Shown: positions 20,879 through 55,294 of the stretch, one piece after another
How the letters are laid out: each line of letters starts with the position of its first letter
How positions within the stretch are numbered: the stretch's first letter is position 1
DNA from: Mycobacteriales bacterium
GTDB taxonomy: Bacteria > Actinomycetota > Actinomycetes > BP-191
NCBI GenBank assembly: GCA_036382875.1
Contig: DASVPJ010000041.1
Location: 2,505-66,504, forward strand
Length of the DNA stretch: 64,000 bases
Direction: 5' to 3'
Notes under the pieces: model-generated
Database searches by the model: none
The model's input: the letters and a program-made list of their open reading frames with translations, nothing else
What the model was told of the DNA's origin: nothing
Program-made: the position numbers and the translations under genes

Positions 20879-20996
20879 AGCCGCAGGTCAGACGGGTGCG
20901 CCGCCAGGGACTTGAACCCTGGATCCGCGGACTTAAAGGCAGGGCAACTTCCGAGGCAGTCCGGGGCAGTTGGTGACAACCGCCTGACCTGCGGTT
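20879..20996. repeat. Degenerate internal copy of the att/tRNA-3' repeat plus conserved island-internal flank
   Basis: Shares caggtcagacgggtgcgccgccagggacttgaaccc with the att repeats and, after a diverged stretch, gcagggc...gaggcagtccgggg.agttggtgaca..cgcctgacctgcg with the island side of attL (19852..19910). Confidence 0.5.
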
Positions 20997-22588: not shown

Positions 22589-22778
22589 GAGCGCCGCGGC
22601 GCCGCTCTGCGACAATCGGAACGAGCGTGCCGCCACGATGCAATCAGGGCGCGCCCATCGGTGCTGTACCTAGCGAGTTCATGCAGGCCGGTTGGTTGCC
22701 CGGAAGATGTCGGTACTGTGGCTGAAAGCGGACGACACACTCGAACGCGCGGACCCTCACCCCGGGTCCGGATGACTC

Positions 22779-23843: not shown

Positions 23844-24225
23844 CTGACCCCCAACTGCTTCATCGTCCGAACGCACGTTACCGGCGACCGCGTTGGCGTG
23901 TCAGTGGGAGGATTGGCCCTCAGCCCTCAACCGCGTCGCGCGACGGCGGGTGCTAGCCGCTCGCGCCGACTCCCGCGCGGCCGAGCGACCGGATGCACTT
24001 AACGAGGTATCCCAACAGGCAACAATCGAGACATTGCCCTCTGCGCGGCGCGTACCATTCGGCACCTAGCGGCTGTGCGGCGAGCGCAGTGGCTCCCATA
24101 GTCGGACGGTGCAGAGGGTCCTATTACACCGACCTTGCTGCGGGTTCGCGACTTCGGATGCCGCCGGGCTTGCCTGCGGATCTGATTGCAGCAGGTGACT
24201 CATTAAGCGTCGGGTCGGCATAATG

Positions 24226-24504
24226 TTAGTCGTCGCACGCCTTGCGGATTGCGTCAACGAACGGCAGATCCTCGTCCTTCGTGTCGTCACTCAAAGACTC
24301 GAACGGCCGAATGGCGTCGTGTTCGCGGCCGCTTGACTCCATCCATGCCGCCCATGCGTCATGCACATCGGCGGCAGTTACGGCCGCGCCCTTTGCGCGC
24401 GCGAGTACGGCATACATCAGGAACAGACTTGTTGATTCTGCTGGAATAAGAGCTTCCGGTACTTGTGAGCGGATCTTGTCCGCGAGGTCTGTGATGTAGC
24501 TCAT
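24226..24504 (-). CDS. Small hypothetical protein (92 aa), third gene of TIR operon
   Basis: ATG overlaps stop of upstream membrane-protein gene (ATGA); acidic C-terminus; no recognised domain. Confidence 0.5.
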   Translation of the reverse strand: MSYITDLADKIRSQVPEALIPAESTSLFLMYAVLARAKGAAVTAADVHDAWAAWMESSGREHDAIRPFESLSDDTKDEDLPFVDAIRKACDD

Positions 24505-24998
24505 CGGACAACCAGATACGTTGCCAGCACGAGATAGACTACCCCGAATGCGACCGGCGTCACTTGCTCGATGAAGCCGAGCTCGGCGTAGCGATCGCGC
24601 CACTTGAGCTTGGTCGGAGGGTCGGTGTTCGGCCTCAAGACGACCCACTCGTCCACGAACGGACGCACCGTGAAGTGGTCCTGTTCGATGCGGTTGATCA
24701 CGGTGAACTTCGCTGAATTCAACTTCCGATAACTCCGGAGAAGGAGCCACCAGGCGCCGGCGAGAAGTACTCCAGCAAAGGCTGCAACCACGAGAACGAA
24801 CCGGTCAGGTGCGGCCTGGCCGCCGCTGTCGCTGACCCTTGTGGCAAAGAGCGCAAGACCGGCAACAAGGCCGGTCTGCAAGGTCAGAAAGAAGCTGTTC
24901 GCCGAGGCTCGCCTTGCGGATACCCGATCCGCCATCTCAACCGCAAGCGAGTACAACGCGAGAACTGTGGCCTCGGAACTAGCGGCTGGGACAGTCAT
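24501..24998 (-). CDS. Multi-TM membrane protein (about 165 aa), candidate effector (SLATT-like?) of TIR operon
   Basis: ATG 24998 one nt after TIR gene stop (alternative GTG 25013); TM helices FFLTLQTGLVAGLALFA, FVLVVAAFAGVLLAGAWWLLL, VTPVAFGVVYLVLATYLVV; AT-ending codons. Confidence 0.6.
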   Translation of the reverse strand: MTVPAASSEATVLALYSLAVEMADRVSARRASANSFFLTLQTGLVAGLALFATRVSDSGGQAAPDRFVLVVAAFAGVLLAGAWWLLLRSYRKLNSAKFTVINRIEQDHFTVRPFVDEWVVLRPNTDPPTKLKWRDRYAELGFIEQVTPVAFGVVYLVLATYLVVR

Positions 24999-24999
24999 C

Positions 25000-25419
25000 T
25001 CAGCGCGAGCCACCGATAAGTAGCTTCAGATTGTCCCAGGTCCAGTTATACATCTTGTCGGTTGACTTGGCGGAGGTGGGGCGCGTGCAGGTTCCGGTGG
25101 CCCGCCCACGTAGCAGGAAGTACGACTTGCCTTCCTCCTGGGCAATCGATACTTCAGCGCTGACTCCGGTGGCGGTGTGCGTGTGGTGACCGCACAGCAC
25201 TACAACCTGGTCGACGCCCTTGATCCGTCTCCGCGCGCGCGACCGCCAATCAGGCGACGCTTCTTTGATGGACATGTCAACTACCTCGAATGGCGAATCC
25301 GAGTTCTTTGCCTGGCCAATCAGCAAGGTCTTGAGATCACTGTCGTTGTCATAGTCGAAACTTACAAACACCCGTGTCTTCGCCACGCCTCTCCCCTGTC
25401 TGGTGCTGTACATACCCAT
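25000..25419 (-). CDS. TIR-domain protein, ThsB-like (DUF1863/MTH538 TIR-like)
   Basis: RVFVSFDYDNDSD...VVVLCGHHTHTATGVSAEVSIAQEEGKSYFLL matches ThsB/DUF1863 pattern (vFfSFhy.D...LIG..T..s.WV..EI); AT-ending codons; start ATG 25419 (TTG 25443 also possible). Confidence 0.7.
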   Translation of the reverse strand: MGMYSTRQGRGVAKTRVFVSFDYDNDSDLKTLLIGQAKNSDSPFEVVDMSIKEASPDWRSRARRRIKGVDQVVVLCGHHTHTATGVSAEVSIAQEEGKSYFLLRGRATGTCTRPTSAKSTDKMYNWTWDNLKLLIGGSR

Positions 25420-25884
25420 CGGCCCTGGCGTCCGATCCGGCAACGACTGATGCCATAACCTATCGCACTAGCTTGTACAGATCGTTCGATGTTCGTGCGC
25501 AGCCGGGTGTCGGCTGGGACGAGACGCCGCCGACACTTCAGCGTGAGTGTGAGCGTCGGTGTGCGGGGGCGAGAGCGGCGTGGGCCGCGCGCCTCGCGGG
25601 CAGGCCGTTCTTGCCTGCCCGCTCTTCCTGTCCGTAGGGGCCGTAGAGGCTCCGAGGTCAAGGGCCGCCGGGGGCGGTCGCGGAGCGACGCGCGAAGCGC
25701 GCCCTTGAGCTTGGAGGGGCGGCCCCGCAGGATGCGCGGCCCGGGGCGCTCGACCGGACGTGCCCGGCTTGCGGTGTACTCCTGTGGACAAGGCGGGGCC
25801 GGCGGCGAGTTCTCCACAGATTCCGTTCGGCCTCTTGCGGGCGCTTCGGCGGTCAGGTGAACTTCAACGATGGTCCATGATCGC

Positions 25885-26127
25885 TCACTCGATCTGATCG
25901 AGACGTCCCATGAGTTGGCTCGGCTTCACGTCGAGCGCTCGGGCGAGGCGCACGACGATCGCGACGGTCGGGTTGCGGCGGCCGGTCTCGATCTCGGAGA
26001 GGTACGCGACGCTGATCCCGGCGCGCTCGGCGCAGACCGGCTGCGTGAAGCCGCGGCGGTGCCGCAGTTCGCGCACCCACAGGCCGAGCGCTTGGCAGAG
26101 CCGCTCGTCCAGATCGTCGGCTGGCAT
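25885..26127 (-). CDS. XRE-family (Cro/CI-type) HTH transcriptional regulator
   Basis: HTH pattern LRHRRGFTQPVCAERAGISVAYLSEIETGRRNPTVAIVVRLARAL; divergent from phage-like genes at 26192. Confidence 0.7.
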   Translation of the reverse strand: MPADDLDERLCQALGLWVRELRHRRGFTQPVCAERAGISVAYLSEIETGRRNPTVAIVVRLARALDVKPSQLMGRLDQIE

Positions 26128-26191
26128 GGACCCGCATCGTACGGACGCGCCGCACTTCGCGGCGGTCCACCCACGACCACGGGAGGACGGC

Positions 26192-26530
26192 ATGACGCAG
26201 ACCATCGTTGACGAGATCGACCGCACGTTCCTGCTGCTGCGCGTTGCGGCAGCCCGCGACGACGGCGCGGACGAGGCGACGGGGACGCGCTGGTGCGCGC
26301 ACGTGTGCGACCCGGCGAGCCCGCTCGCGGGTCTCTACGCCTTCGCGGACACCCTCGCCGAGGCGCGGGACGCGGTGACGGTCCTGGCGTGGACGGCGGT
26401 ACTCGCGGGCGAGCTGCTGCCGTTCGGCTACACCGCCGACGACCTGGCAGGCATCCACGTCGCGGTGACGACGACCACCCCGTACGACGCCGCCTGGCTC
26501 AACGCCGCAGTCGCGAACGACGCGGCGTAG
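26192..26530 (+). CDS. Hypothetical island protein
   Basis: ATG after GGGAGGACGG SD; GC3-rich; 112 aa, no recognised domain. Confidence 0.5.
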   Translation: MTQTIVDEIDRTFLLLRVAAARDDGADEATGTRWCAHVCDPASPLAGLYAFADTLAEARDAVTVLAWTAVLAGELLPFGYTADDLAGIHVAVTTTTPYDAAWLNAAVANDAA

Positions 26531-26542
26531 GTAGGAGGCGCC

Positions 26543-27028
26543 ATGACGACACAGATCGACGGCTGCCGGCCGCACCTGACCAGCGACCGCGCGGACGAGT
26601 CGTACTCCTCCTGGGTCGGTCGGGCGCGGTGCGCCGGGTGGTCGGACGTGTTCGGCGACGAGAGCAGCAACGACGAGGCGCTGGCGCTCTGCGGGGCGTG
26701 CCCGGTGCTGCGGCAGTGCCGCCGATGGGCGCTGCGCACCGCGGTGGACGGCGTGGCCGGCGGCATGACGTCCGCGGAGCGCGCGGCGTGGCGGCGCGAG
26801 CACGGCGAGCCGGAGCCGGTCGTGAGCGTCGAGGACTTCCTGCTGACCGAGGTGGTCAGCGCCGACCGGACGTGGGGCCGTGGCCGCTCCGAGGCGATCC
26901 TCAACGCGGTAGCACGCTGGACCGACGACGGACACACCGCTCGCGAGATCGGCCTCCGGCTCGGCGTCACCCGACGCACCGTGAACAGGCTCCGCGCTAC
27001 CTGCCGCGAATGCCGACTCATCGCCTGA
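26543..27028 (+). CDS. WhiB-like (Wbl) Fe-S transcription factor with extra C-terminal HTH
   Basis: Cys motif C...C..C....C (CAGW...CGACPVLRQCRRWAL), GVAGGMTSAER turn; C-terminal AREIGLRLGVTRRTVNRL; typical of actinophage/AICE regulators. Confidence 0.75.
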   Translation: MTTQIDGCRPHLTSDRADESYSSWVGRARCAGWSDVFGDESSNDEALALCGACPVLRQCRRWALRTAVDGVAGGMTSAERAAWRREHGEPEPVVSVEDFLLTEVVSADRTWGRGRSEAILNAVARWTDDGHTAREIGLRLGVTRRTVNRLRATCRECRLIA

Positions 27029-27130
27029 CCCGACCCCGTTCCTCGACCTCTGCTGTTCTCCCGACCCCTTCGTCTCTTCTTCTTCGCTTCTCTCCTGATG
27101 TTGTTGATCTTGTTGCTGACCTGATCCGCT

Positions 27131-27338
27131 CCACCCCGCTGACCTGCCCTCCCTTCTCCAATGTGCGTGTCGAGGGAGTGCCACATGTTCGGGGGTGCGA
27201 AGCAGCCCCGAACATGTGGCACGACCGACCCCCGGCGGAGTGCAAAACCGCAGGTCAGCGGGGTGGAGCGGCCTCCGAAAAAGATCTTCGAGGGTGGTTC
27301 CTCGGGTGGTGCCTCGGTGCGTGGACCGAGGCACCACC
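27131..27338. promoter_or_regulatory. Cluster of strong nested palindromes upstream of xis-int (candidate regulatory/recombination-accessory region)
   Basis: 17-bp inverted repeat ccaccccgctgacctgc (27131-27147) and gcaggtcagcggggtgg (27250-27266) enclosing a perfect 17-bp stem hairpin (27178-27222); a further 14-bp stem hairpin at 27305-27338; contains CTGACCTG also present in att core and att-adjacent arms. Confidence 0.5.
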
Positions 27339-27475
27339 CTGAGCGGGTCCCCGGTTACGAGAACTTCACGGAGATCTCACCGCCGTGGTAACTCGGCCGT
27401 GAACCTTTCGTGAAGTCCCGAGCCGACCGTCCCCCCACGTCCCGGTAGCCCGGGACGGGCGAGAGGAGAGCCACC

Positions 27476-27745
27476 ATGAGCGCCATCGACCCGGCGTCGT
27501 TGCCGCCCGTTCTCGACGTCCCCACGGCCGGCCGGCTGCTCGGACTCGGCCGCTCCGCGGCCTACGACCTCGCCGTCGCCGAGCTCTGGCCGACGCCGGT
27601 CCTGCGGCTCGGACGGCGGCTGCGGATCCCGACCGCTCCGTTGCTGGCGCTTCTCGGCCTCGACCCTGGTCCGCTGTCGCAGTCCGGTGGCATGGTGACC
27701 GGGTCACCAACTGCCCCGGCTGCCTCCGAAGGAGGCAGGCCATGA
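27476..27745 (+). CDS. xis: Excisionase/Xis-family HTH DNA-binding protein
   Basis: GAGAGGAGAG SD; MerR/AlpA-like HTH (LDVPTAGRLLGLGRSAAYDLAVAELWPTPVLRLGRRLRIP); stop overlaps integrase ATG (ATGA). Confidence 0.7.
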   Translation: MSAIDPASLPPVLDVPTAGRLLGLGRSAAYDLAVAELWPTPVLRLGRRLRIPTAPLLALLGLDPGPLSQSGGMVTGSPTAPAASEGGRP

Positions 27746-28974
27746 CGAAAGAGTCGGGCGTGTACCAGCGGCACTCACGGCGCTGCCCGCGCAACGCGGG
27801 CGGTCGTGGCTACGCGCCGCACCGGTGCACCGGCACGTGGTCCTACGTCATCGACGTGGGCCGGGACGCCAACAACGAGAGAAGGCAGGAGACGAAGGGA
27901 GGCTTTCCGACCAAGCGGGAAGCGGTCGAGCAGCGGCGCAAGCGTCTCGGCGAGCTGAGGTCGCGGACGGGCGAGGCGTACGGGACGACGGTCGGCGCGT
28001 ACCTGGAGCAGTGGCTGTCGTGGAAGCGCGGCCTGCGGGACAGCACCCGGCTGTCCTACCGGCAGCACCTGGACGACTACCTGGTCCCGGCGCTTGGGCA
28101 GTACCGGCTCGCCGACCTGGAACGTCGGCCGGAGCTGATCGAGCAGATGTTCTCCAACCTCGTCACCGGGGTCAGCGGCAAGCCGTTGTCGCCGGCGTCG
28201 GTGCGGCGCATCTACTCGACGCTGCGCAGCGCGCTCAACAGCGCGGTGAAGCGGCGGATGCTGGCGCACAACCCGGCGTTGCACGTCGAGCTGCCGCGGA
28301 CGGCGCTGTACCGGCCGGTCGTGTGGGACGCGCAGCAGGTCGGCATCTTCCTCGACGCGATCCAGGGCCACCGGCTCTACGCGCTCTACGGCGTCGTCGT
28401 CCTGACCGGACTCCGGCGCGGCGAGGCGCTCGGGCTCCGGTGGGAGGACGTGGACCTGGACGAGGGCGTGCTGCACGTACGCCAGCAGGTCGTCGCGGTC
28501 GGCACGGAGGTCCGCATCGGCCCGCCGAAGACGAAGGCGGGGGAGCGGACGGTCGCGCTGTCCGAGGCGACCGTGGCGATGCTGCGCGAGCACCAGGCGC
28601 GGCAACGGCGCGAACGGCTCGCGTGGGGCGAGGCGTGGCACGACAGCGGCCACGTGTTCACCTACGAGGACGGCCGGATGCTGCGGCCGGACCACGTGAC
28701 GCACCTGTTCCGCAGGCTGGCGAAGGAGGCGGGGCTGCCGCTGATCCGGCTGCACAACCTGCGGCACACCAGCGCGAGCCTCGCGCTGGCGGCGGGCGTC
28801 CCGATGAAGGTCGTCAGCGACCGGCTCGGCCACTCCAGCGAGTCGATCACCTCGGCGCTCTACACGGTCGTCGTGCCCGCTGTGGCACGCGAGGCGGCCG
28901 AGCGGATCGCCAACGTCGTGCTGCTGCCGAGGGCACGGAGCGACGAGCACGAAGCCGTGTTAGCGCGGCGTTAG
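27742..28974 (+). CDS. int: Tyrosine-type site-specific integrase
   Basis: C-terminal catalytic region (LRRGEALGLRWEDVD, HNLRHTSASLALAAGVPMKVVSDRLGHSSESITSALY); adjacent to tRNA-Lys and attR. Confidence 0.9.
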   Translation: MTKESGVYQRHSRRCPRNAGGRGYAPHRCTGTWSYVIDVGRDANNERRQETKGGFPTKREAVEQRRKRLGELRSRTGEAYGTTVGAYLEQWLSWKRGLRDSTRLSYRQHLDDYLVPALGQYRLADLERRPELIEQMFSNLVTGVSGKPLSPASVRRIYSTLRSALNSAVKRRMLAHNPALHVELPRTALYRPVVWDAQQVGIFLDAIQGHRLYALYGVVVLTGLRRGEALGLRWEDVDLDEGVLHVRQQVVAVGTEVRIGPPKTKAGERTVALSEATVAMLREHQARQRRERLAWGEAWHDSGHVFTYEDGRMLRPDHVTHLFRRLAKEAGLPLIRLHNLRHTSASLALAAGVPMKVVSDRLGHSSESITSALYTVVVPAVAREAAERIANVVLLPRARSDEHEAVLARR

Positions 28975-28984
28975 CGCATGACCG

Positions 28985-29070
28985 GGAGAGGGCCAGGCCC
29001 GAGCGGGAAAGCCCAGGTCAGACGGGTGCGCCGCCAGGGACTTGAACCCCGAACCCGCGGATTAAGAGTC
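28985..29070. repeat. attR: direct repeat overlapping 3' half of tRNA-Lys
   Basis: Partner of 19767..19851. Confidence 0.7.
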
Positions 29071-29099
29071 CGCTGCTCTGCCAATTGAGCTAGCGGCGC
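29027..29099 (-). tRNA. tRNA-Lys (anticodon CTT), CCA not encoded
   Basis: Minus-strand cloverleaf GCGCCGC-TA-GCTC-AATTGGCA-GAGC-A-GCGGA-CTCTTAA-TCCGC-GGGTT-CGGGG-TTCAAGT-CCCTG-GCGGCGC-A; 73 nt. Confidence 0.85.
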
Positions 29100-29181
29100 G
29101 TGGCGCAGACTCTACACGACCTTCCGCCGGGGCCGCGCGCGCGTTACCGTCGTACGTCTGGCCAGCGGAGGGGCGGGGATC

Positions 29182-30150
29182 GTGCTGCGCGTACGGCGGT
29201 CGGTCGCGGCCGGGGTGGCGATCGCGGTGCTCGGCGTGCCGTGGGCCATCGCCGCGCCGCAGGAACGCCCCCTCTGCCTCGACCCGGTGATCGCCTGCCC
29301 GAAGCCGCCGCCGCCCGAGCCGGACCCGGTGCCGAAGCCGGACACGAGCGCGTACCGGGGCCTCGGCACGTGGGTCGACGCGTACGACTTCGCGCGCGAG
29401 TTCGGCAACGCCACCACGCGGCCGAGCGCGGTGGACGAGATGGCGCAGCAGGGCGTGAAGACGCTCTACATCCAGGCCGCGAAGGACCGCGACGGCGTCG
29501 GCGACCTGGCCAGCCCGGACCTGCTCGGGCAGTTCCTCGAACGCGCCCACGCCCGGCGGATGAAGGTGATCGCCTGGTACCTGCCGCGCTTCCTCGACCA
29601 GGAGCGCGACTTCCGCCACGTGAAGGCGATGCTCGACTTCCGCTCGCACGGCCACGCGTTCGACGGCGTCGGCATCGACATCGAGTCGCGCGAGAACGGC
29701 GACGTGAAGCAGCGCAACGACCGCCTCGTCGCGCTGTCGCAGCGGGTGCGCAAGGCGGCGGGCATGCGCAGCGTCTCGGCGATCGTGGTGCCGCCGGTGG
29801 TGACGGACGTGATGAACCCGAAGTTCTGGCCGGACTTCCCGTGGAGCCGGATCCGGAGCAGCTACGACGTCTGGGTCCCGATGGGCTACTGGACCAACCG
29901 CAAGCCGGACAGCGAGTACCGCGACGCGTACCGCTACACGACGGAGAACGTCCGCCTGCTCCGCGAGAACCTGAACGACCCCAACGCCGTGGTCCACGTC
30001 GCCGGCGGAGTCGGAACCAAGGCGACGAGCAGGGACTACGAACGCTTCGTGCTGGGCGCCCGCGACAGCCGCAGCGTCGGGCTCTCCGTCTACGACTGGG
30101 CGGTCACGGCGCGCAGCGCGTACCCGATCCTGCGCAAGGGGCCGAGCTAG
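29182..30150 (+). CDS. Secreted hypothetical protein (possible glycoside-hydrolase-like TIM-barrel)
   Basis: GTG after GGAGGGGCGGGG SD; signal peptide; GC3-rich; Pro-rich linker then about 250-aa domain. Confidence 0.6.
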   Translation: MLRVRRSVAAGVAIAVLGVPWAIAAPQERPLCLDPVIACPKPPPPEPDPVPKPDTSAYRGLGTWVDAYDFAREFGNATTRPSAVDEMAQQGVKTLYIQAAKDRDGVGDLASPDLLGQFLERAHARRMKVIAWYLPRFLDQERDFRHVKAMLDFRSHGHAFDGVGIDIESRENGDVKQRNDRLVALSQRVRKAAGMRSVSAIVVPPVVTDVMNPKFWPDFPWSRIRSSYDVWVPMGYWTNRKPDSEYRDAYRYTTENVRLLRENLNDPNAVVHVAGGVGTKATSRDYERFVLGARDSRSVGLSVYDWAVTARSAYPILRKGPS

Positions 30151-31360: not shown

Positions 31361-32395
31361 TCACCCTGAGAGCGCCGCCGTCCGCCGGCCGATCGCGGGC
31401 ACGAACTTGAAGCCGTGCCCCGAGCACGGCGAGCAGACGACGAGCGCCCCGTGGCGGCGCAGCACGAACGACTCGTCCGGCGTCGTCGTGTACAGGCACG
31501 AGTCCGCGCGGGTGGCCCGCGGCTCGGCGCCGGGCAGCCACTCGGCGGCATACTCCTCGACCCGCCGCACCGCGGCGGCGTCGACGCCGAGCCGCGCGTC
31601 GGGCGTCACCGGACGGCCGCTGCCGTGCTCGCCGACCTTGACGCCCTCGCCGGGCGCGCCGAGGCCGTAGTACGGCACGCCGTCCGCGCGGTGGTGGATC
31701 CACGACGGCCAGGCCGCGTCGCTCGGCAGGTAGACCGGCTGCTCCTGCGTGACCCGGAACGGCGGCAGGTCGTCCGGCACCGGCAACGACGCGAGCAGCC
31801 CCGGCAGCCACGCGCCGGCCGCGACGACGGCGACCCGCGCCTCGTACTCGTCGCCGGTGTCCGTCGTGACGGCGACGCCGTACGACGTCTCGCGCGCGGC
31901 CACGGCGGTCACGCCGAACCGCACGTCGGCGCCGTGCCGCGCCGCCTCCGCGTGCAACGTCTCCACCGCCGCGTCGGCGTCGAGCCGCCCGGCGTCGGGC
32001 TGGTGCACGACGTCGGAGGAGAACCGCAGCGCCGGCCACCGCTCGGCCGCCGCCGCGGCGGCCAGGCGCTCGTACGGCAGGCCGTGCGCGCGCAGGTTCG
32101 CCTCGATGTCGTCGACCGCCACGCCGTGGTCGACGCCGCCGGTGACCTGCAGCAGGGACGCGCCGCTCTCGCGTTCGAGCAGCCGCCACAGGTCGTACGC
32201 CTCGCGGGCCATCGCGACGTACGAGCCGTCGGCGTAGGCGAGCCGGAAGATGCGCGAACGGCCGTGCGAGGAGCCGTGCACGTGGTGCCCGGGGTGGCGT
32301 TCGAGCAGCGTCACGTCGCGCCCGGCGCGGGCCGCCCACCAGGCGGTCGCCGAGCCCATCGCGCCGCCGCCGACGACGAGCAGGTCCGTACGCAT
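31361..32395 (-). CDS. FAD-dependent oxidoreductase (sarcosine/N-methyltryptophan oxidase SolA-like)
   Basis: Rossmann dinucleotide motif DLLVVGGGAMGSATAWWAA; C-terminal pattern ending CSGHGFKF. Confidence 0.8.
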   Translation of the reverse strand: MRTDLLVVGGGAMGSATAWWAARAGRDVTLLERHPGHHVHGSSHGRSRIFRLAYADGSYVAMAREAYDLWRLLERESGASLLQVTGGVDHGVAVDDIEANLRAHGLPYERLAAAAAAERWPALRFSSDVVHQPDAGRLDADAAVETLHAEAARHGADVRFGVTAVAARETSYGVAVTTDTGDEYEARVAVVAAGAWLPGLLASLPVPDDLPPFRVTQEQPVYLPSDAAWPSWIHHRADGVPYYGLGAPGEGVKVGEHGSGRPVTPDARLGVDAAAVRRVEEYAAEWLPGAEPRATRADSCLYTTTPDESFVLRRHGALVVCSPCSGHGFKFVPAIGRRTAALSG

Positions 32396-32508
32396 CGCGG
32401 GCAGGCTACGGCGCCGCGCGCGGCGAATGCTTGACCCGGAGCCCGTTCCGCCGGTTTGCTCCACCTCTGCCCGAGATGCCCGGTCGACCCCTCTGCAAGG
32501 AGACCCTC

Positions 32509-32736
32509 GTGCGCCGTCTGCTCGCCCTGCCCCTCGTCGCGTTCGCGTTCGCGACCCCCGCCTCCGCCGCCGTGTCCTGCCACGGCGTGTACTCCGGCAG
32601 CACCGACGTCAGCGTCTGCGCCGGCATCGAGTGCGTCGACCTGTGCGGTCCGCGCCTCGTCGTCGACCCGCGCTGCTCCGGCGCGCCCTCGATCGCCGCC
32701 GCGCTGTGCGCCGCGATCGACGCGTACGAGCTCTGA
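32509..32736 (+). CDS. Small secreted 6-Cys protein, paralog 1 of 3 (75 aa)
   Basis: GTG after AAGGAGAC SD; signal peptide VRRLLALPLVAFAFATPASA; mature about 55 aa with 6 Cys. Confidence 0.55.
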   Translation: MRRLLALPLVAFAFATPASAAVSCHGVYSGSTDVSVCAGIECVDLCGPRLVVDPRCSGAPSIAAALCAAIDAYEL

Positions 32737-32762
32737 CCTCGCCTCACCCAAGGAGACCCGGC

Positions 32763-32975
32763 ATGCGCCGTCTGTTCGCCCTGCCCCTGATCGCCGCGGC
32801 GTTCGCCACGGCGAGCCCCGCCGGCGCGGTCGCCGCCTGCACGCCGACCGTCGTCGGCGCCTGCGTGTCGTACCAGTGCGGCGAGATCTGCGGGCCGGTC
32901 GAGGTGTGGCTCTACTGCGACCTCGACAGCCACCCGCGCATCCTCGCCTGCGACCTGATCAACCAGCTCGGCTGA
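32763..32975 (+). CDS. Small secreted 6-Cys protein, paralog 2 of 3 (70 aa)
   Basis: ATG after AAGGAGACC SD; MRRLFALPLIAAAFATASPAGA signal peptide; 6 Cys. Confidence 0.55.
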   Translation: MRRLFALPLIAAAFATASPAGAVAACTPTVVGACVSYQCGEICGPVEVWLYCDLDSHPRILACDLINQLG

Positions 32976-33004
32976 GCCCCGTTCTGCGAAGGAGCCCCTC
33001 CGTG

Positions 33005-33238
33005 ATGCGTCGTCTGCTCGCCGGTGCGGCTGTCGCCGCCGTGGCGTTCGGCGTCACCGCCCCCGCGTCCGCCGCCTGGTCCTGCCACGGCGTCGAGTCC
33101 GGCACCACCCGTGCCGGCGTCTGCGCCGGCTCGTGGTGCGTGGACGAGTGCTGGATCGTGGCCTGGACCTACTGCGAGGGCGCGAACGCCAAGGTCTGCA
33201 CCGCCGTCGACGGGCTCGGCGCCCCGCCCGGCCGCTGA
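33005..33238 (+). CDS. Small secreted 6-Cys protein, paralog 3 of 3 (77 aa)
   Basis: ATG after GAAGGAGCC SD; signal peptide MRRLLAGAAVAAVAFGVTAPASA; 6 Cys (WSCHGVESG...CAGSWCVDEC...YCEG...VC). Confidence 0.55.
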   Translation: MRRLLAGAAVAAVAFGVTAPASAAWSCHGVESGTTRAGVCAGSWCVDECWIVAWTYCEGANAKVCTAVDGLGAPPGR

Positions 33239-33251: not shown

Positions 33252-33704
33252 CTACGGCGCGGTGACCGACGCCCCCTCGCACATCAGGTAGTAACGGGTC
33301 GTCGGGTTGATGTTGGCGTACTGCGCCACGCAGGTGAACGCCGCCGGCGCGCCGGTGGACGCGCACAGGCCGGCGAACGCGATGAGGCCGGCCACGTAGG
33401 CGACCTGGCACAGCCCCAGCTGCAGGGGGCCGCAGGAGCCGTACATGGTGCCGGTGCCGACCGCGATGGTGCCGACGACGGTGCCCGAGAACCCGCAGGA
33501 GTACGTCCCCAGGATGCCGCGGGTACCGACGCTCGTGATCGTGCCGGTGAACGCCACGGACTGCGGCTGCGAGTAGAGCCCGAAGCCGGGCGTGAACGTT
33601 CCGCTGCCGGTCAGCACGAACACGTCGGCGTTCGGGGCTGACGCGGCCGGGCTTGCCATGGTGAGGGGGAGCGCGAGCACGGCGACGAGGGGACGGAGCT
33701 TCAT
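33252..33704 (-). CDS. Secreted protein, uncharacterised paralog family member A (150 aa)
   Basis: ATG 33704 after AGGAGAA SD; signal peptide; family motifs (VLTGSGTFTPG, QSVAFTGTITSVGT, SCGFSGT, GSCGP, NINPTTRYYLMC). Confidence 0.7.
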   Translation of the reverse strand: MKLRPLVAVLALPLTMASPAASAPNADVFVLTGSGTFTPGFGLYSQPQSVAFTGTITSVGTRGILGTYSCGFSGTVVGTIAVGTGTMYGSCGPLQLGLCQVAYVAGLIAFAGLCASTGAPAAFTCVAQYANINPTTRYYLMCEGASVTAP

Positions 33705-33735: not shown

Positions 33736-34203
33736 CTACGGCACCCGGTAGTCGACCGCGACGACGCACGCGAGGTTGAACCGCGTCGTCGGGTTGACGT
33801 TCGTGGGCTGGAACACACAGTCGAAGTGCAGGCCTCGCGACGCGCTGGCGATCACGGCCGTGGTCAGGGAGAGAGTGGGACCTACGCGCACCAAGACCAT
33901 GTCGACGCCCGACGTCGGGCCACAGCTCCCGGAGAGCGAACCCAATCCGAGGAGCACCGAGCCGATTTGGTCCGTTCCCGAGAAGCTGCACGAGTATCCG
34001 CCGAGACCCACAGGGAACGTGCTTGCGTAGCTTGCCGTCCCGGTGAACGAGATCGACTGCGGGGTCGGGACCACCGTAAGGCCGGGGCTGAGGGTCCCGC
34101 TGCCGGTGATCACGTAGACGTTCGCGTCCAGAGCCTCGGCGGGCGGCGCGACCGGAAACGCGAGCGCGGCGGCGGCGCCAGCGACGAGCAGGCGGTGCGA
34201 CAT
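33736..34203 (-). CDS. Secreted protein, paralog family member B (155 aa)
   Basis: ATG 34203 after GAGGGGGGA SD; motifs ITGSGTLSPGL, QSISFTGTA, SCSFSGT, GSCGP, CVFQPTNVNPTTRFNLAC. Confidence 0.7.
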   Translation of the reverse strand: MSHRLLVAGAAAALAFPVAPPAEALDANVYVITGSGTLSPGLTVVPTPQSISFTGTASYASTFPVGLGGYSCSFSGTDQIGSVLLGLGSLSGSCGPTSGVDMVLVRVGPTLSLTTAVIASASRGLHFDCVFQPTNVNPTTRFNLACVVAVDYRVP

Positions 34204-34477: not shown

Positions 34478-34945
34478 TTACGAGATCTTCGCGAGCCCCG
34501 CGGCGCACGCGAGGTTGTAGCGGGTGGTCGGCCGGACGTTCGTCGGCTGGAACACGCAGTCACCGGCGCCGATGCCGCCGGTGCCGCCGTTGATCGGGCA
34601 CACGACGATCACGTGCACGCCGGTGAACACGAGCGAGCAGCCCGGGAACGACAGCGGGCCGCAGGAGCCCGAGACGGTGCCGGTGCCGCCGGCCATGTTG
34701 CCGAAGCCGGTGCCGGAGAACGAGCACGGGTACGAGCCGGGCAGGCCGTCGGTGCCGACCACGGTCGCGGTGCCCGTGAACGAGATCGACTGGTTCTGCA
34801 CGACCTCGGTGAGACCCGGCGAGAGGGTGCCGCTGCCGGTGATCGCGGCGACGTCGACGTTGGCGGCGACGGCGGGCGACGCCGACAGCAGCGCGAACGG
34901 CATCGCCAGCGTGGCACCGAGGAAGAGCGAGCGGGTGAGCTTCAT
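34478..34945 (-). CDS. Secreted protein, paralog family member C (155 aa)
   Basis: ATG 34945 (MKLTRSLFLG...); motifs ITGSGTLSPGL, QSISFTGTA, CSFSGTG, GSCGP, CVFQPTNVRPTTRYNLAC. Confidence 0.7.
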   Translation of the reverse strand: MKLTRSLFLGATLAMPFALLSASPAVAANVDVAAITGSGTLSPGLTEVVQNQSISFTGTATVVGTDGLPGSYPCSFSGTGFGNMAGGTGTVSGSCGPLSFPGCSLVFTGVHVIVVCPINGGTGGIGAGDCVFQPTNVRPTTRYNLACAAGLAKIS

Positions 34946-36418: not shown

Positions 36419-37474
36419 TCAGCAGCCGGGGACCGCCGACGACACGCGGCAAGGGGTGCCGGCGCCGCCGTAGTTGTGACCGGTGTTGTCGACGCCCACC
36501 CACCCGTACGGGGTGTGCACGCCGATGTGCTCCTCGTTCGTCTGACCGTTCTGCATCAGGTTGCCGGGCTTGCCGACGCGGGCCACGACCGGGGTACGGC
36601 GGGGCGCGACGTCGACGAGGGGCGCGGCCGGCTCGGTGCCGCCGGTGCGCGCCGGGGCGGACGCCACGCGGGTGCCGGCGGCGGCCGCCGCGCCCGACCG
36701 GGCGGCGGGGAGGGGCGCGGAGCGGCCGGCGTCCTGGACGTACACGGTGCCCCGCGGCGCGGCCATCGCCCGCGGCGCGGAGCCGTGCGGCGCGACGGTG
36801 TACGTCACCGCGCCCGCCACGGCGACGGCGAGCGCGGCCGCGCCGGCGAACGAGAAGCCGCCGCCCTGCGCGAGCTTGGCCGCCCTGACCGCGGCGGTGC
36901 GGCGGCGGAGCCGGACCAGCGCGCCGAGCCCGAACGCGCCGCTCGGCACGCTGGCGAGGGCCCGGCGGAACTGGTTGCGCGCGCGGAACAGCTTCTGCCG
37001 CACGGCGTTGTCGTTGGTCCCCAGGAAGCGGGCGATCTCGCCGACGCTCATCTCGTCGAACGCCTGGAGCGCGAGCACCTGGCGGGACGCGGGGGCGAGG
37101 CCGTCGAGCACCTTGTGCACGGCCTGGCTGCGGTCGGCGGCGAGCACCGGCTCGTCGGCGGGCGGCGCCACCTCGCGCTCGTAGGTCTCCTCGGTGAGCG
37201 GCTGCTCCGGCGCCTGCGCGCGGGCGAAGTCGCGGGCGACGTTGACGGCGATCGCCGCGATGTACGGCCACGGGTCGCGGGACGGGTCGATCCGGTGCGC
37301 GTGCAGCAGGACCCGGACCATCGTCTCCTGCGCGACGTCCTCGCTGTCGAACGCCGGGAACCGGCGCGCCGCGAGGCCCTTCACCCGGCCGTAGTAGCGG
37401 CGGTAGAGCACCTGGAACCGCTCGTCGTGGTCGTCCGCGCGTTCGGCGGCGACGTCGATCGGCTGGGCGCTCAC
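36419..37474 (-). CDS. ECF sigma factor with C-terminal membrane-anchored extracytoplasmic extension (sigma/anti-sigma-like fusion)
   Basis: GTG 37474 after GGAG SD; sigma region 2 (FQVLYRRYYGRVKGLAARRFPAFDSEDVAQETMVRVL) and region 4 (LALQAFDEMSVGEIARFLGTNDNAVRQKLFRARNQF) followed in the same frame by a TM helix (FSFAGAAALAVAVAGAVTY) and a 150-aa C-terminal domain. Confidence 0.7.
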   Translation of the reverse strand: MSAQPIDVAAERADDHDERFQVLYRRYYGRVKGLAARRFPAFDSEDVAQETMVRVLLHAHRIDPSRDPWPYIAAIAVNVARDFARAQAPEQPLTEETYEREVAPPADEPVLAADRSQAVHKVLDGLAPASRQVLALQAFDEMSVGEIARFLGTNDNAVRQKLFRARNQFRRALASVPSGAFGLGALVRLRRRTAAVRAAKLAQGGGFSFAGAAALAVAVAGAVTYTVAPHGSAPRAMAAPRGTVYVQDAGRSAPLPAARSGAAAAAGTRVASAPARTGGTEPAAPLVDVAPRRTPVVARVGKPGNLMQNGQTNEEHIGVHTPYGWVGVDNTGHNYGGAGTPCRVSSAVPGC

Positions 37475-37616
37475 GGGGTCACTCCGGGGATGTCCTGTCG
37501 GGCGAGGGCACCTTCTCAAACGTTTCCTGGGTGTGTCCGTAACGTTCGACGGGGAGAGCCCGTACACCTTCCAGAGGTTCGGTCTGCCCAGGACCGCCCA
37601 GGAGGGGGATACGGGG

Positions 37617-39683
37617 ATGTCCACGGCATCCGCCGTACGCGGCCCGCACTGGCCGCGGCTGACCCCTGCCGTCGCCCTGGCGGACATCGCCACGGCGATG
37701 AACTCCTCCCTCGGCCTGGACGAGATCCTGCGCACCGTCGTGCGCCTGACCTGCGACGTCCTGGCCGCCAACCGGGCCACGATCCTGCTGCTCGACGACC
37801 TGATGCGGCTGGTGCCGAAGATGTCGCACGGCGCCGTGGAGGACCCGGCCGCGCTGGCCCGGTTCCGCGAGATGCCGCCGATCGCGCTGGCCTCGATCCC
37901 GCACGCGATCGACCTCATCGGGAAGGCGGCGGCGCTGCCGATCAGCGACGTCGGCGCCTCCGACCTGATCCCGCGCGAGTGGATCGACCAGTTCGGGCTG
38001 CAGTCGCTGCTGATCGCGCCGATCGTGGCCGACGGCGAGACGCTCGGCGCGCTGGTGGCGGACTACGTGGACGAGCGCCACGAGTTCACGCCCGCGGAGA
38101 CCCGCACGATGGAGGGCATCGCGGCCTGCTGCGCCACCGCGATGCGCAACGCCCGCCTGTACGACGAGGCCGTGCGCCGCGCGCAGAACCTGGACGAGAG
38201 CCTCCGCGTCACCGCCGACCTGAACGCCGCCACGACGTCGCGCGGCGTCTGCGACGTCGCCCTGGACGGCCTGCTGCGGGTGCTCGAGGGCAGCCGGGCG
38301 AGCCTGCACGTCTACGCCGACGACGCGCTCGTCACGCTCGCGACGCGCGGCGGGTTCCACCCCGACCCGGGCCGGTACCCCCTCGCGGCGGACGAGCGGG
38401 CGGCGCTCGTCGCCTTGGCGGACGAGCGGGGCGGCATCGCCGACGCGGTACGCCACCTGGCGCCGTTCGCCGCGCTGCCGGACGACCTGCCCACGGTGCT
38501 GCTGCCGCTCACCGACGCGCCCACGCCGGGCTTCGTGCTCGTGACGTGCGCCGAGCTGCCCGACGACACCCGCTGGCGCCTCGCCCGCTCGGTCGCCGGC
38601 CAGGTGTGGCTCGCGCTGGACCGCGCGCGGCTCGCCGAGCAGACCCAGCGCCGGTTCGAGGACCTCCAGACGATCTACCACCTGGCCGACGAGCTGGCGC
38701 TCGCGCCGGACCTGGACACCGTGGTCGCGCGGATCGCCGGGCCGGTCCGGGTGGCGACCGGCTGCGAGGCCATCGACGTCTACCTCTGCGGCTCGCGCGG
38801 CAGCGAGCGGTTCGCCAGCCGGCCGCCCGGCAAGGCGCTCTCCGCGCTGATGCGCGCGTGGCGTACGCCGCCGTCGCACCCCGTCGAGCACGGCGGGCTG
38901 CTGGTCGTGCCGATGGTGCTCGACGGCGCGCTGGTCGGCCTGCTCCGCGTCCGCGAGGGCGCCGAGCACCCCGGCCCGGCCGAGGAGGACTTCCTCATGG
39001 CCATCGCGGCCGGCGTCGCGAGCGTCGTGTCGCGCGCCGAGCTGACCGCCAAGGTCGGGGAGGCGCAGCGCGAGCTCGCCGTCGTCCAGGAGCGCGAACG
39101 CATCGCCCGCGACCTGCACGACACGCTCGGCCAGACCCTGTTCGGCCTCGGGCTCCAGCTCGCGCAGTGCGAGCAGGCCGCCACCGACCAGGCGCTGCGC
39201 GCGTCGCTGCGCCAGGCGAAGGGCGCCACCGACGCGGCCGCGGTGCAGCTCCGGCAGGCGATCCACGCGCTGGCGTTCCTCAAGGGCGGCCGGCTCGACC
39301 TCGTCGGCTCGCTGCGCGCGCTCACCCGCGAGCTGCCGGAGGGCCTCAACGCCGTCTTCCAGACCTCCGGCCGCGCCGTCGCCGTCGAGCCGGCGCGCGC
39401 CGAGGCGCTCCTGCGCGTGGCGCGCGAGGCGCTGGTCAACGTCGAGAAGCACGCGCTGGCCAGCGCCGTGTACCTCGAGCTGCGCTACCGCAGGGGGACG
39501 GTCGAGCTGACGGTGACCGACAACGGCACCGGGCTCGGCCAGCGCGCGTCCGCGCTCGCGGCGTCCGGGCTGCACTTCGGCCTGCGCAGCATGAAGCGAC
39601 GGCTCGACGAGGTCGGCGGGGAGTTCTCGTTCGAGAACGTCGTCCCGCACGGCCTCCGGATCACCGCGAGGGTGCCCGTATGA
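37617..39683 (+). CDS. Sensor histidine kinase with three cytoplasmic GAF domains (HisKA_3/NarX-type)
   Basis: ATG after GGAGGGGGA SD; H-box ERERIARDLHDTLGQ; HATPase_c motifs (TVTDNGTGL, GLHFGLRSMKRR); no TM segments. Confidence 0.85.
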   Translation: MSTASAVRGPHWPRLTPAVALADIATAMNSSLGLDEILRTVVRLTCDVLAANRATILLLDDLMRLVPKMSHGAVEDPAALARFREMPPIALASIPHAIDLIGKAAALPISDVGASDLIPREWIDQFGLQSLLIAPIVADGETLGALVADYVDERHEFTPAETRTMEGIAACCATAMRNARLYDEAVRRAQNLDESLRVTADLNAATTSRGVCDVALDGLLRVLEGSRASLHVYADDALVTLATRGGFHPDPGRYPLAADERAALVALADERGGIADAVRHLAPFAALPDDLPTVLLPLTDAPTPGFVLVTCAELPDDTRWRLARSVAGQVWLALDRARLAEQTQRRFEDLQTIYHLADELALAPDLDTVVARIAGPVRVATGCEAIDVYLCGSRGSERFASRPPGKALSALMRAWRTPPSHPVEHGGLLVVPMVLDGALVGLLRVREGAEHPGPAEEDFLMAIAAGVASVVSRAELTAKVGEAQRELAVVQERERIARDLHDTLGQTLFGLGLQLAQCEQAATDQALRASLRQAKGATDAAAVQLRQAIHALAFLKGGRLDLVGSLRALTRELPEGLNAVFQTSGRAVAVEPARAEALLRVAREALVNVEKHALASAVYLELRYRRGTVELTVTDNGTGLGQRASALAASGLHFGLRSMKRRLDEVGGEFSFENVVPHGLRITARVPV

Positions 39684-40339
39684 CCGCGCTGTCCGTCTAC
39701 CTCGTCGACGACCACCCGGTCGTCTGCTCCGGCCTCGACGCGCTGCTGTCCGCCCAGGAGGACATCGAGGTGGTCGGCTACTCGCACAGCGCCGAGCTGG
39801 CGCTCTGCGACCTCCGGGAGCGCCCCGCCGACGTGGTCATCGTCGACCACCGCCTCGGCGGCTCGATGGACGGCGTCGACCTGTGCCGGCGGATCACCGA
39901 GCCGCCGTACCTCGCCCGCTGCCTGGCCATGAGCGCCAGCGCCGACGGCGAGAGCGTGCGGTCCTTCGTCTGCGCCGGCGCCAGCGGGTTCCTGCTCAAG
40001 CACGCCGACCCCGCCCGCATCGTGGACGCGGTCCGTACGGTGGGCCGCGGCGCGTCGTTCATCGACCAGCGGGTGGCCGAGCTGATCGCGCAGGAGCTGA
40101 ACCCGGCCACCCGCGGCCGGATGCTGCTCACCGCGCGCGAGCGGGAGATCCTCGAGTACGTCGCGCGCGGGCTGTCGAACCGCGAGATCGCCGTGCGGCT
40201 CTGCGTCTCCACGAGCTCGGTGAAGAGCTACGTCTCGAACCTGCTCCGCAAGCTGGGCGTGACGCACCGGACGGAGGCGGTCGCCGTGGCCGCGCGCGAA
40301 GGGCTGCTGGCTCTCGTGTCGGGCAGCGGTGTCCGATGA
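39680..40339 (+). CDS. NarL/FixJ-family response regulator (REC plus LuxR HTH)
   Basis: ATGA overlap with kinase stop; REC motifs (VYLVDDHPVV, VVIVDHRLGG); C-terminal LuxR HTH (LTAREREILEYVARGLSNREIAVRLCVSTSSVKSYVSNLLRKLGV). Confidence 0.85.
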   Translation: MTALSVYLVDDHPVVCSGLDALLSAQEDIEVVGYSHSAELALCDLRERPADVVIVDHRLGGSMDGVDLCRRITEPPYLARCLAMSASADGESVRSFVCAGASGFLLKHADPARIVDAVRTVGRGASFIDQRVAELIAQELNPATRGRMLLTAREREILEYVARGLSNREIAVRLCVSTSSVKSYVSNLLRKLGVTHRTEAVAVAAREGLLALVSGSGVR

Positions 40340-40448: not shown

Positions 40449-40480
40449 GGTTTTGCCCCCGTTCCATGAAAGAGGTTCGT

Positions 40481-40942
40481 ATGAAGAAGCTCGTTCGCTC
40501 GCTCTTCGCGGGTGCCGCGATCGCGATGCCCATCGTGATGGTCACCGCGTCCCCGGCCGCCGCGCTCGACGCGTTCGTCATCACCGGCTCGGGCACGATC
40601 AGCCCCGGCCTGACGGCCGTCCCGACGCCGCAGTCGGTCAGCTTCACCGGTACGGCGACGAGCGTCGGCACGACGGCGGTCCCGGGCTCGTACCCGTGCT
40701 CGTTCTCCGGCACGGACACGCTGGGCTCGGCGGCCGAGGGCGTCGGCACGGTGTCGGGCTCCTGTGGCCCGTTCGCGTTCACGAACTGCCAGTTCGTCCG
40801 GATCGTGGGCGTCGTGGTCGTGGTCTGCCCGCCGCAGGGCAACCCGCCGCGTACCGCCGTCGCGGTCTGCGCGTTCCAGCCGACCAACGTCAACCCGACC
40901 ACGCGGTACAACCTCGTGTGCGCGGGTGTCGTCGGCCCGTAG
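40481..40942 (+). CDS. Secreted protein, paralog family member D (153 aa)
   Basis: ATG after AAAGAGG SD; motifs ITGSGTISPGL, QSVSFTGTA, CSFSGTD, GSCGP, CAFQPTNVNPTTRYNLVC. Confidence 0.7.
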   Translation: MKKLVRSLFAGAAIAMPIVMVTASPAAALDAFVITGSGTISPGLTAVPTPQSVSFTGTATSVGTTAVPGSYPCSFSGTDTLGSAAEGVGTVSGSCGPFAFTNCQFVRIVGVVVVVCPPQGNPPRTAVAVCAFQPTNVNPTTRYNLVCAGVVGP

Positions 40943-54970: not shown

Positions 54971-54984
54971 GGTGTCTCCTGTTC

Positions 54985-55266: not shown

Positions 55267-55294
55267 GCTCTCCTCCACGGTCGGGAGGAACAGC

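Follow-up and report, generated by a model that had tools for sequence, protein, structure and literature searches.

What do three adjacent genes for small, secreted, cysteine-rich peptides do for the bacterium that carries them? The genes, here called A, B, and C, occupy positions 32509 to 33238 of a 64,000-nucleotide stretch of contig DASVPJ010000041.1 (73% GC actinobacterial DNA; "the window" below means this whole stretch), whose genes carry locus tags VF519_15715/15720 in a metagenome-assembled genome (MAG) of a Mycobacteriales bacterium. The host is an uncultured soil actinobacterium, a relative of Frankia. An initial annotation, made from the DNA letters alone, described three tandem paralogs and likened them to bacteriocin, toxin, or signaling-peptide families. 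Here, sequence comparisons indicate that the peptides belong to an undescribed, small, lineage-restricted, and fast-evolving family with a new Cys framework. The reading that we favor, to which we assign a probability of roughly 45%, is that the products are exported, disulfide-stabilized mini-proteins with a role in interference by specific binding.

The genes, their family, and the predicted peptides

The three genes and their Shine-Dalgarno sites are placed in the window as follows.

32509-32736, + strand: gene A (GTG start, 75 aa)
32763-32975, + strand: gene B (ATG start, 70 aa)
33005-33238, + strand: gene C (ATG start, 77 aa; in-frame alternative GTG at 33002)
32497-32502, + strand: Shine-Dalgarno AAGGAG of gene A (6-nt spacer to the GTG; AGGAG is conserved there in all aligned loci)
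32750-32755, + strand: Shine-Dalgarno AAGGAG of gene B
32989-32994, + strand: Shine-Dalgarno AAGGAG of gene C

The intergenic gaps (A/B and B/C) are 26 and 29 nt, and an exact AAGGAG lies 6 to 10 nt ahead of each of the three starts. GC content at third codon positions (GC3) is 0.96, 0.97, and 0.92 for A, B, and C, respectively, compared to 0.55 to 0.68 at second positions (GC2). Because GC3 lies far above GC2 in DNA this GC-rich, we regard all three as real coding frames. Coordinates, strand, Shine-Dalgarno sites, and GC3 all upheld the claim of three tandem paralogs, each with its own AAGGAG. Direct DNA repeats with a period of ~250 nt run across the gene starts, as expected of tandem duplicates, and a six-frame scan of the 64 kb with a hidden Markov model (HMM) of the family recovered exactly three members, all inside the array.

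Are all three products related to one another? Mature A and C are 49% identical (E = 2e-11); B gave no BLAST alignment to A. An HMM from which every B-type sequence had been left out gave B 32.4 bits, and since this score exceeds those of all 4,200 composition-preserving shuffles (best, 15.5), B is a true but divergent family member. The motif that had been proposed for the array, CHGV.SG...VCAG..C.D.C, holds for A and C but fails for B, which has CTPTVVGAC....CGEIC. Strong divergence outside the Cys scaffold, also proposed, was confirmed. Poor conservation among close strains, which the initial annotation had named as evidence that would count against it, was not what we found: A-, B-, and C-type orthologs stand in the same order in other genomes.

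Searched with a profile, 5.8 billion clustered proteins yielded 35 clusters; when the mature-domain profile was run exhaustively with HMMER through 1.84 billion representatives (clustered at 50% identity), only 30 matches reached E ≤ 1e-3. Every match of both searches is 61 to 91 aa long and consists of a signal peptide and one domain. Where a source is named, it is an uncultured MAG of Frankiaceae or Mycobacteriales or a soil metagenome, and the gene C product is identical to one database protein (P0002). Two divergent members at a related locus, L019, score only 11 to 20 bits, which means that the searches somewhat understate the size of the family. For A, B, and C, the Pfam, NCBIfam, and PADLOC libraries gave nothing above noise; matches to nec1, Defensin_3, and rodlin were sub-threshold or confined to the signal peptide. 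A sequence-profile search of the PDB at E ≤ 10 returned zero matches. A scan of species-representative genomes for the A type only, with one narrow pattern, returned the already known Frankiaceae MAG and one further candidate, L015, which was rejected as spurious (a non-coding frame opposite another gene, with no HMM match).

Database members together with paralogs read from the fetched loci made up 74 distinct sequences. In two alignments of trimmed database members (33 and 55 sequences; 57 aligned members overall), the six Cys residues are invariant, and exactly six are present in 72 of the 74 trimmed mature parts; one has eight, and the single count of seven is a trimming artifact (a Cys within the signal peptide of P0041). 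The family spacing is C-x(7-18)-C-x4-C-x3-C-x(7-9)-C-x(4-16)-C, in which the outer loops vary and the core C-x4-C-x3-C is retained in 67/74. The other positions conserved at ≥90% are the Gly two residues before Cys2 and the Asp of C-x-D-x-C in the 33-sequence alignment, and that Asp alone in the 55-sequence alignment. Exported proteins of aerobic Actinobacteria show a bias toward even Cys numbers, indicating extracytoplasmic disulfide formation (PMC2823432). Near-universal possession of six Cys fits three disulfides per peptide, so that the three putative disulfides of the initial annotation appear probable.

How would such peptides leave the cell? The predicted parts of each product are listed below, with hydrophobicity given as the grand average of hydropathy (GRAVY).

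32509-32568, + strand: gene A signal peptide, (V/M)RRLLALPLVAFAFATPASA, with signal peptidase I predicted to cut after ASA
32569-32736, + strand: gene A mature peptide and stop (55 aa, six Cys, net charge -4, GRAVY +0.75)
32578, 32617, 32632, 32644, 32674, 32707, + strand: gene A Cys codons
Cleavage predicted after AGA (32828) or AVA (32834), + strand: gene B signal peptide, MRRLFALPLIAAAFATASPAGA(VA)
Following that cleavage, + strand: gene B mature peptide (46 to 48 aa, six Cys, net charge -4)
32838, 32862, 32877, 32889, 32916, 32949, + strand: gene B Cys codons
Ending at 33073, + strand: gene C signal peptide, MRRLLAGAAVAAVAFGVTAPASA
Following that end, + strand: gene C mature peptide (54 aa, six Cys, aromatic-rich [WIVAWTYC], net charge -2)
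33083, 33122, 33137, 33149, 33173, 33197, + strand: gene C Cys codons

All three products begin with MRRL(L/F), continue with a hydrophobic stretch, and carry AxA ~3 residues ahead of Cys1. Their lengths, their exact count of six Cys, and their Sec-type signal peptides agree with the annotated secreted, six-Cys mature peptides of 45 to 55 aa. Across the family, AxA lies ≤10 residues upstream of Cys1 in 68/74 members (commonest distance, 3), and 43/74 start with MRRLL. We also considered lipoproteins with an acylated Cys1, and the lipobox ([LVI][ASTVI][GAS]C), even in a permissive PROSITE-type form, fits only 5/74; residues -1 to -3 ahead of Cys1 include P, E, D, Y, and W. Given AxA in 68 and a lipobox in 5 of the 74, a Sec signal peptide cleaved by signal peptidase I is the supported route, and lipidation is not. 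Despite the RR at positions 2 and 3, export by Tat appears unlikely because the signal peptide is short (20 to 24 aa) and lacks an extended n-region.

The 74 mature peptides have net charges of -10 to 0 (median, -3) and a median pI of 4.4; none is cationic. Their median GRAVY is +0.37, Lys makes up 0.9% of residues, and Val, Ala, and Gly are high. This charge profile is the opposite of that of cationic defensin-type antimicrobials.

AlphaFold2 modeled mature A from the 33-sequence alignment with a mean predicted local distance difference test score (pLDDT) of 82.5, placing strands at residues 3-9, 12-23, and 27-37 and a helix at 41-51. An independent AlphaFold run on mature B with the 55-sequence alignment (pLDDT 78.6) gave strands at 2-4, 9-17, and 21-30 and a helix at 36-46. 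The two models share the same β-β-β-α topology with Cys in equivalent elements: Cys1 in strand 1, Cys2 and Cys3 in strand 2, Cys4 in the turn between strands 2 and 3, Cys5 at the end of strand 3, and Cys6 within the helix. Because the hairpin register sets Cys1 opposite Cys2, a cross-strand bridge between these two residues is likely in the models. Foldseek comparison of the A and B models to the PDB found no neighbor (best E, 3.4 and 1.6; template modeling score ≤ 0.47), and the top matches were unrelated fragments of kinases, AMPK, and metallo-β-lactamases.

Variation of the array and its surroundings

How stable is the array between genomes? The number of genes is three in the window, L001, and L003; five in L011; seven in L009; two in L019; and at least four in L013. 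The A-B-C order is kept in the window, L011, and L013, with extra types appended. The largest arrays observed are seven tandem family genes within 1.7 kb (L009, 1085-2742) and five in L011 (3499-4725); some adjacent genes in these two arrays overlap start to stop by 1 to 4 nt, which suggests translational coupling. L016 and L019 have flanking DNA that is ~90% identical, and L016 is short of ~490 bp. Comparison of L016 4842-5000 with L019 4358-4878 showed that L016 is left with a frameshifted, chimeric remnant of ~150 bp, composed of the first gene's signal-peptide end (...VPAASATETC...) and the second gene's C terminus (...PLSGRCATIDRVFVYLGPK, then the stop). Because this remnant stands where the relative L019 has two genes, the array is ancestral at the locus, has been deleted in at least one lineage, and is dispensable. 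Together, the repeats, the array sizes, and the remnant indicate that the genes arose by tandem duplication and undergo gene birth and death.

We quantified divergence of the mature parts of orthologous pairs as the Nei-Gojobori ratio of nonsynonymous to synonymous rates (dN/dS). Over all pairs the ratio spanned 0.06 to 1.21; for comparisons with the window it lay between 0.22 and 1.06 (median, ~0.7), whereas the oxidase gene adjacent to the array gave 0.26 to 0.48 between the same genomes; since dS is compressed by 97% GC3, these absolute values are inflated for peptides and oxidase alike. The robust point is the two- to three-fold excess of the peptides over the oxidase. The Cys scaffold is under purifying selection, given that the Cys residues are invariant, and the loops are relaxed or diversifying.

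Is that oxidase a partner of the peptides? It is encoded immediately upstream of gene A, on the opposite strand:

31361-32395, - strand: sarcosine/N-methyl-Trp-oxidase-like flavin adenine dinucleotide (FAD) gene (Pfam DAO, 8.8e-48; NF008425, 252 bits versus a 257-bit cutoff)

The array is head-to-head with this gene in every long contig. The initial annotation placed the array upstream of the FAD oxidase gene; the two are divergent, so the arrangement is not one of genes following each other in the same direction. Next to the oxidase comes an EAL gene, which L003 lacks; STAS and then the gene of a conserved secreted protein (~322 aa, no Pfam match) follow. Oxidase homologs form a clade at ≥67% identity, the next being at ≤56%, and those at 52 to 55% identity have unrelated contexts. 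Two clade members, L016 (oxidase, 70%) and L017 (67%), keep the oxidase-EAL-STAS-p32x block intact and contain no family member (best six-frame HMM score, 6 bits). A third, L019 (oxidase, 73%), has its two divergent family genes beside the oxidase and a left flank matching that of L016 (BNR protein, TetR, 149-aa gene). Because L016 and L017 have kept the block with no array beside it, the block is independent of the array, and these alignments indicate that the oxidase is a positional neighbor rather than a partner, with the oxidase, EAL, and STAS genes being neighbors by descent. The functional link to the FAD oxidase implied earlier is thus reduced to one of position.

Between the oxidase gene and gene A, alignment across loci points to a candidate promoter, and A-B-C is probably a three-gene operon.

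32431-32460, + strand: candidate array promoter (-35-like TTGACC at 32431-36, 18-nt spacer, -10-like TTTGCT at 32455-60)

The consensus GAAyNGCTTGAC-N18-T(C/T)T(A/G)CT (with GG before the -10-like part), together with AGGAG, is present upstream of gene A in 6/8 aligned oxidase/array intergenic regions. L016 and L017, which have no array, lack TTGAC in the corresponding region ahead of the oxidase gene. A strict scan for sigma-70 promoters and intrinsic terminators called nothing, the TTGAC element included, and the element is put forward as a candidate from the cross-locus alignment only.

The far side of the array differs by locus: in the window it holds three secreted paralogs of ~150 aa, and in L003 it holds a two-component pair and an M36 peptidase. 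Further genes of the window on either side of the array are as follows.

29182-30150, + strand: conserved secreted 322-aa protein, no Pfam match
33252-33704, 33736-34203, and 34478-34945, - strand, and 40466-40942, + strand: four secreted paralogs of 150 to 158 aa with 4 to 6 Cys
36419-37918, - strand: sigma-70/ECF-like factor with long extensions
37533-39683, + strand: GAF-HisKA_3 histidine kinase
39680-40339, + strand: LuxR-type response regulator

Wherever the flank was long enough, including L016 and L017 with no array, a Pfam-less gene similar in size to that of the 322-aa protein lies beyond STAS. The 150- to 158-aa paralogs share the motif ITGSGT.SPGL...SFTGT...C.FSGT...GSCGP...C.FQPTNVNPTTRYNL.C and have no match in Pfam, NCBIfam, or PADLOC, and their Cys spacing is unrelated to that of the small peptides. 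L001 encodes Pfam-less proteins of 147 and 152 aa downstream of its array, which resemble these paralogs in size only; none was found in L003. The sigma factor and the two-component genes lie 3 to 7 kb downstream of the array, and a sigma factor and GAF kinase are also downstream in L001.

Elsewhere in the window, a block at ~20 to 26 kb has a GC content of 62 to 63%, compared to ~74% in the remainder, and is followed by a tyrosine integrase gene (27742-28974) and then tRNA-Lys(ctt) (29025-29099, - strand). The region from ~20000 to 29100 is probably a mobile element integrated at the tRNA; L001 has an integrase at the equivalent position. At the edge of this low-GC island, adjoining a fatty-acid desaturase gene (18454-19470), a 59-aa open reading frame (ORF) (19556-19735, + strand; MKKTLRLSREELRELTAPELQDVQGG followed by THPLITDGHHCFGTTLCAGLSLPTACGVLTIDC) has a double-glycine-type leader, a Cys/Thr-rich core, and no Pfam match, and it resembles a RiPP (ribosomally synthesized and posttranslationally modified peptide) or class II bacteriocin precursor. 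Two more small ORFs with signal-peptide-like starts (50895-51137, + strand, 80 aa, 4 Cys; 10839-11015, + strand, 58 aa, 2 Cys) are unrelated to the six-Cys family by HMM. Judging from translations, consecutive genes at 52536-55296 (- strand) encode a P-type ATPase resembling CopA, a CopZ-like metallochaperone, and a CsoR-like repressor, and 56625-63035 (- strand) encodes a secreted giant protein of 2,136 aa.

Possible functions of the peptides

What, then, might the peptides do? On the reading that we favor, each product would be exported by Sec and then cleaved by signal peptidase I, after which the extracytoplasmic thiol-oxidase system of Actinobacteria would form three disulfides, locking a compact three-strand β sheet and a C-terminal helix. 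This scaffold would present variable loops and an unusually hydrophobic surface, and the peptides would act outside the cell as stable, non-enzymatic binding ligands. Their role would be interference with something foreign, as a toxin- or inhibitor-like arsenal directed at competitors, their enzymes, or other soil organisms, and the retained A, B, and C types would differ in specificity. The peptides are unlikely to be enzymes because they are too small and too variable, and they are unlikely to be RiPPs because no RiPP machinery was found. Because they are anionic, electrostatic membrane attack in the style of defensins is also unlikely, and an interaction specific to a receptor or enzyme fits better. 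A toxin-like or signaling function, as the initial annotation had it, is possible.

Several observations weigh against interference by specific binding. All of the evidence comes from metagenome assemblies. The dN/dS ratio is never clearly >1, and the GC3-compressed dS leaves relaxation and diversifying selection both fitting. An anionic or neutral charge combined with hydrophobicity is atypical of antimicrobial peptides and would equally suit surface-active proteins. The array also sits at one fixed chromosomal position across the whole clade, suggesting a lineage-specific physiological trait rather than a mobile weapon. Finally, no transporter, dedicated exporter, immunity, or receptor gene is conserved beside the array in the loci examined, which weakens the case for a classical bacteriocin.

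The main rival is a coat. Here, A, B, and C would be non-redundant subunits of a surface-active, hydrophobic, disulfide-stabilized layer, like that of hydrophobins or chaplins, on hyphae or spores or at air-water interfaces. The peptides are small, predicted to be exported by Sec, and hydrophobic (GRAVY of +0.75 for A and a median of +0.37, with 0.9% Lys), and they form a multi-paralog family in which the Cys pattern is conserved and the sequence is poorly so, as in fungal hydrophobins. Vertical inheritance at a fixed locus, in every sampled clade member bar one deletion, and retention of the A-B-C order and types across genomes are also consistent with such a trait. In addition, the neighboring EAL (cyclic di-GMP), STAS anti-sigma antagonist, and sigma factor genes are of the kinds used in actinobacterial development. 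However, these regulatory neighbors persist without the array and hence are not dedicated to it, and the deletion in L016 shows that the array is dispensable. Fast evolution and changes in copy number are untypical of chaplins, similarity to chaplins (PF03777) or rodlins does not extend beyond the signal peptide, and the 8-Cys hydrophobin pattern with CC is absent. We consider a coat less probable than interference but a serious rival, and more probable than any of the remaining alternatives.

Secreted, pheromone-like signals sensed by a membrane histidine kinase, with the paralogs providing specificity, are less probable still. Disulfide-rich acidic pheromones are known in ciliates, which offers an analogy for this alternative. 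Some loci have two-component genes within a few kb downstream (37533-39683 and 39680-40339 in the window), and in L003 the array is directly followed by a histidine-kinase fragment and an OmpR-type regulator. Nevertheless, the type of kinase differs between loci and none is consistently adjacent, the GAF sensor of the window's kinase is a cytoplasmic-type domain, and three to seven ligands are not accompanied by a matching expansion of receptors.

It is very improbable that these are extracytoplasmic metal or redox thiol peptides, in which six Cys (with the His of CHGV) would be ligands of Cu or Zn or act as a redox buffer. The Cys residues are invariant, a His follows Cys1 in A and C, and a copper-resistance-like cluster, read from its sequence, lies ~20 kb away. 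Yet the His is not conserved family-wide, CxxC and metallothionein-like motifs are absent, other loci show no linkage to metal genes, and the even Cys count fits the disulfide bias of exported actinobacterial proteins (PMC2823432).

That the genes encode RiPP precursors, on which the FAD oxidase or some other enzyme would act ahead of export, is largely refuted. Short Cys-rich ORFs beside a flavoenzyme gene would suit this idea, and six Cys in ~45 to 55 residues are superficially SCIFF-like; however, the N termini are Sec signal peptides rather than RiPP leaders, NCBIfam (whose models include SCIFF and lanthipeptide precursors) gave no match, the conserved neighborhood has no radical-SAM, LanM/B/C, or cyclodehydratase gene, and the oxidase is a sarcosine/N-methyl-Trp oxidase ortholog that persists where the array is deleted. 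Spurious or decaying, functionless ORFs are barely credible, for although dN/dS reaches ~1 and L016 has lost the array, GC3 is 0.92 to 0.97, the frames are intact at nucleotide divergences that would break neutral ORFs, and the six Cys, Shine-Dalgarno sites, and signal peptides have been retained in ~76 sequences drawn from many samples.

How far may the favored reading be extended? The widest form of the proposal, which we put forward as doubtful, is that the peptides represent a new structural class of bacterial disulfide-rich mini-proteins, with a β-β-β-α topology, three disulfides, and the framework C-C-x4-C-x3-C-C-C. The array would supply uncultured soil Frankiaceae with anionic extracellular ligands, an arsenal fixed in chromosomal position and variable in copy number, and its action, whether as receptor-specific toxin or inhibitor or as a bacterial analog of hydrophobins, would be unlike that of cationic defensin-type peptides. 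In more general terms, this is a new family within a known general kind, that of multigene families of secreted mini-proteins rich in disulfides. Defensins, knottins, conotoxins, and other mini-proteins of this sort are valued both for their hyperstable scaffolds and for the antimicrobials and inhibitors that they yield. To our knowledge, very few bacterial families of this kind have been described, and those are cationic peptides of the cysteine-stabilized αβ (CS-αβ) type. The array and its relatives offer >70 natural sequence variants on one scaffold, and heterologous production should be easy because export by Sec is simple and needs no dedicated machinery. If active, the peptides would widen the repertoire of bacterial extracellular peptides and provide a first functional handle on this uncultured soil actinobacterial lineage; if they are coat proteins, they would be a bacterial analog of hydrophobins.

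Comparison with known peptide systems

Which known system do the peptides most resemble? The initial annotation had suggested a likeness to bacteriocin, toxin, or signaling-peptide families and a comparison with knottins and defensin-like peptides; no specific bacteriocin, toxin, defensin, or knottin family was supported by Cys patterns, profile libraries, the PDB, Foldseek, charge, or neighborhood. The Cys pattern of CS-αβ defensins, that of Zhu, C-x(2-18)-C-x3-C-x(2-10)-[GAPSIDERYW]-x-C-x(4-17)-C-x-C, matched 0/74 mature sequences, in which CxxxC is present and CxC is not. The six-Cys spacings of α- and β-defensins that end in CC matched 0/74, and the knottin spacing, C-x(3-7)-C-x(3-8)-C-x(0-7)-C-x(1-4)-C-x(4-13)-C, matched 1/74. 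Zhu's pattern has been employed for the bacterial cis-defensins, whose classes I to V are defined by a cysteine-stabilized helix/CS-αβ scaffold (PMC11561630). The β-β-β-α models do not match the CS-αβ fold order, in which a helix precedes a two- or three-stranded antiparallel sheet and is stapled to its last strand. The 74 reported bacterial defensins are mostly from Proteobacteria, with a single actinobacterial member, and at least one cis-defensin, xanthusin-1, had no antimicrobial activity (PMC11561630). Our peptides are like the cis-defensins in being small bacterial peptides with a signal peptide and, by prediction, three disulfides, but differ in Cys pattern and, in the models, in the order of secondary structure.

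Hydrophobins have eight Cys, including two CC pairs, and conserve only this pattern, and chaplins have two Cys and a DUF320 domain. The hydrophobin pattern C-CC-C-C-CC-C is not found here, where members have six Cys and no member has a CC pair. Pfam gave no match to a chaplin (PF03777, DUF320) or rodlin domain, and the NCBIfam rodlin match spans residues 1-37, mostly signal peptide, at 13 bits versus a 75-bit cutoff. The resemblance is that all are small, secreted, hydrophobic, multi-paralog families, which in the case of hydrophobins, chaplins, and rodlins occur in filamentous organisms; the eight-Cys/CC pattern and DUF320 domain set those families apart. Precursors of SCIFF peptides and other RiPPs likewise found no NCBIfam match, and the neighborhoods examined contain no maturase gene. 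By sequence, the products do carry a Sec signal peptide on a small unmodified peptide, as do Sec-dependent class II bacteriocins; a conserved small membrane-protein gene, which would be an immunity candidate, was absent beside the array in the loci examined.

In evolutionary mode only, the family recalls the conotoxin superfamilies, with a conserved signal peptide, a fixed Cys framework, hypervariable loops, and gene duplication. Unlike our peptides, conotoxins are animal venom peptides with propeptide regions; there is no homology, and dN/dS here falls short of demonstrating positive selection.

The actifensins of Actinomyces are ribosomal peptides with six Cys, three disulfides, and degenerate sequence around the conserved Cys; their operons hold up to seven tandem structural genes, and they have a leader of 32 aa, cleaved at a GA motif, and conserved genes for ABC transporters (PMC6989792). 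Their topology is reported to be that of a class I cis-defensin, CS-αβ (PMC11561630). In contrast, the present peptides have Sec signal peptides with AxA, are anionic, lack CxC, are modeled as β-β-β-α, and share no sequence similarity with actifensins, which are cationic, and the conserved neighborhood of the loci examined lacks an ABC transporter, unlike the actifensin operon (afnJKL/F, afnB-I). What the two systems share is a tandem set of degenerate structural genes (2 to 7 copies here) with six conserved Cys. Of the systems compared, the actifensin family is the closest functional counterpart of the array.

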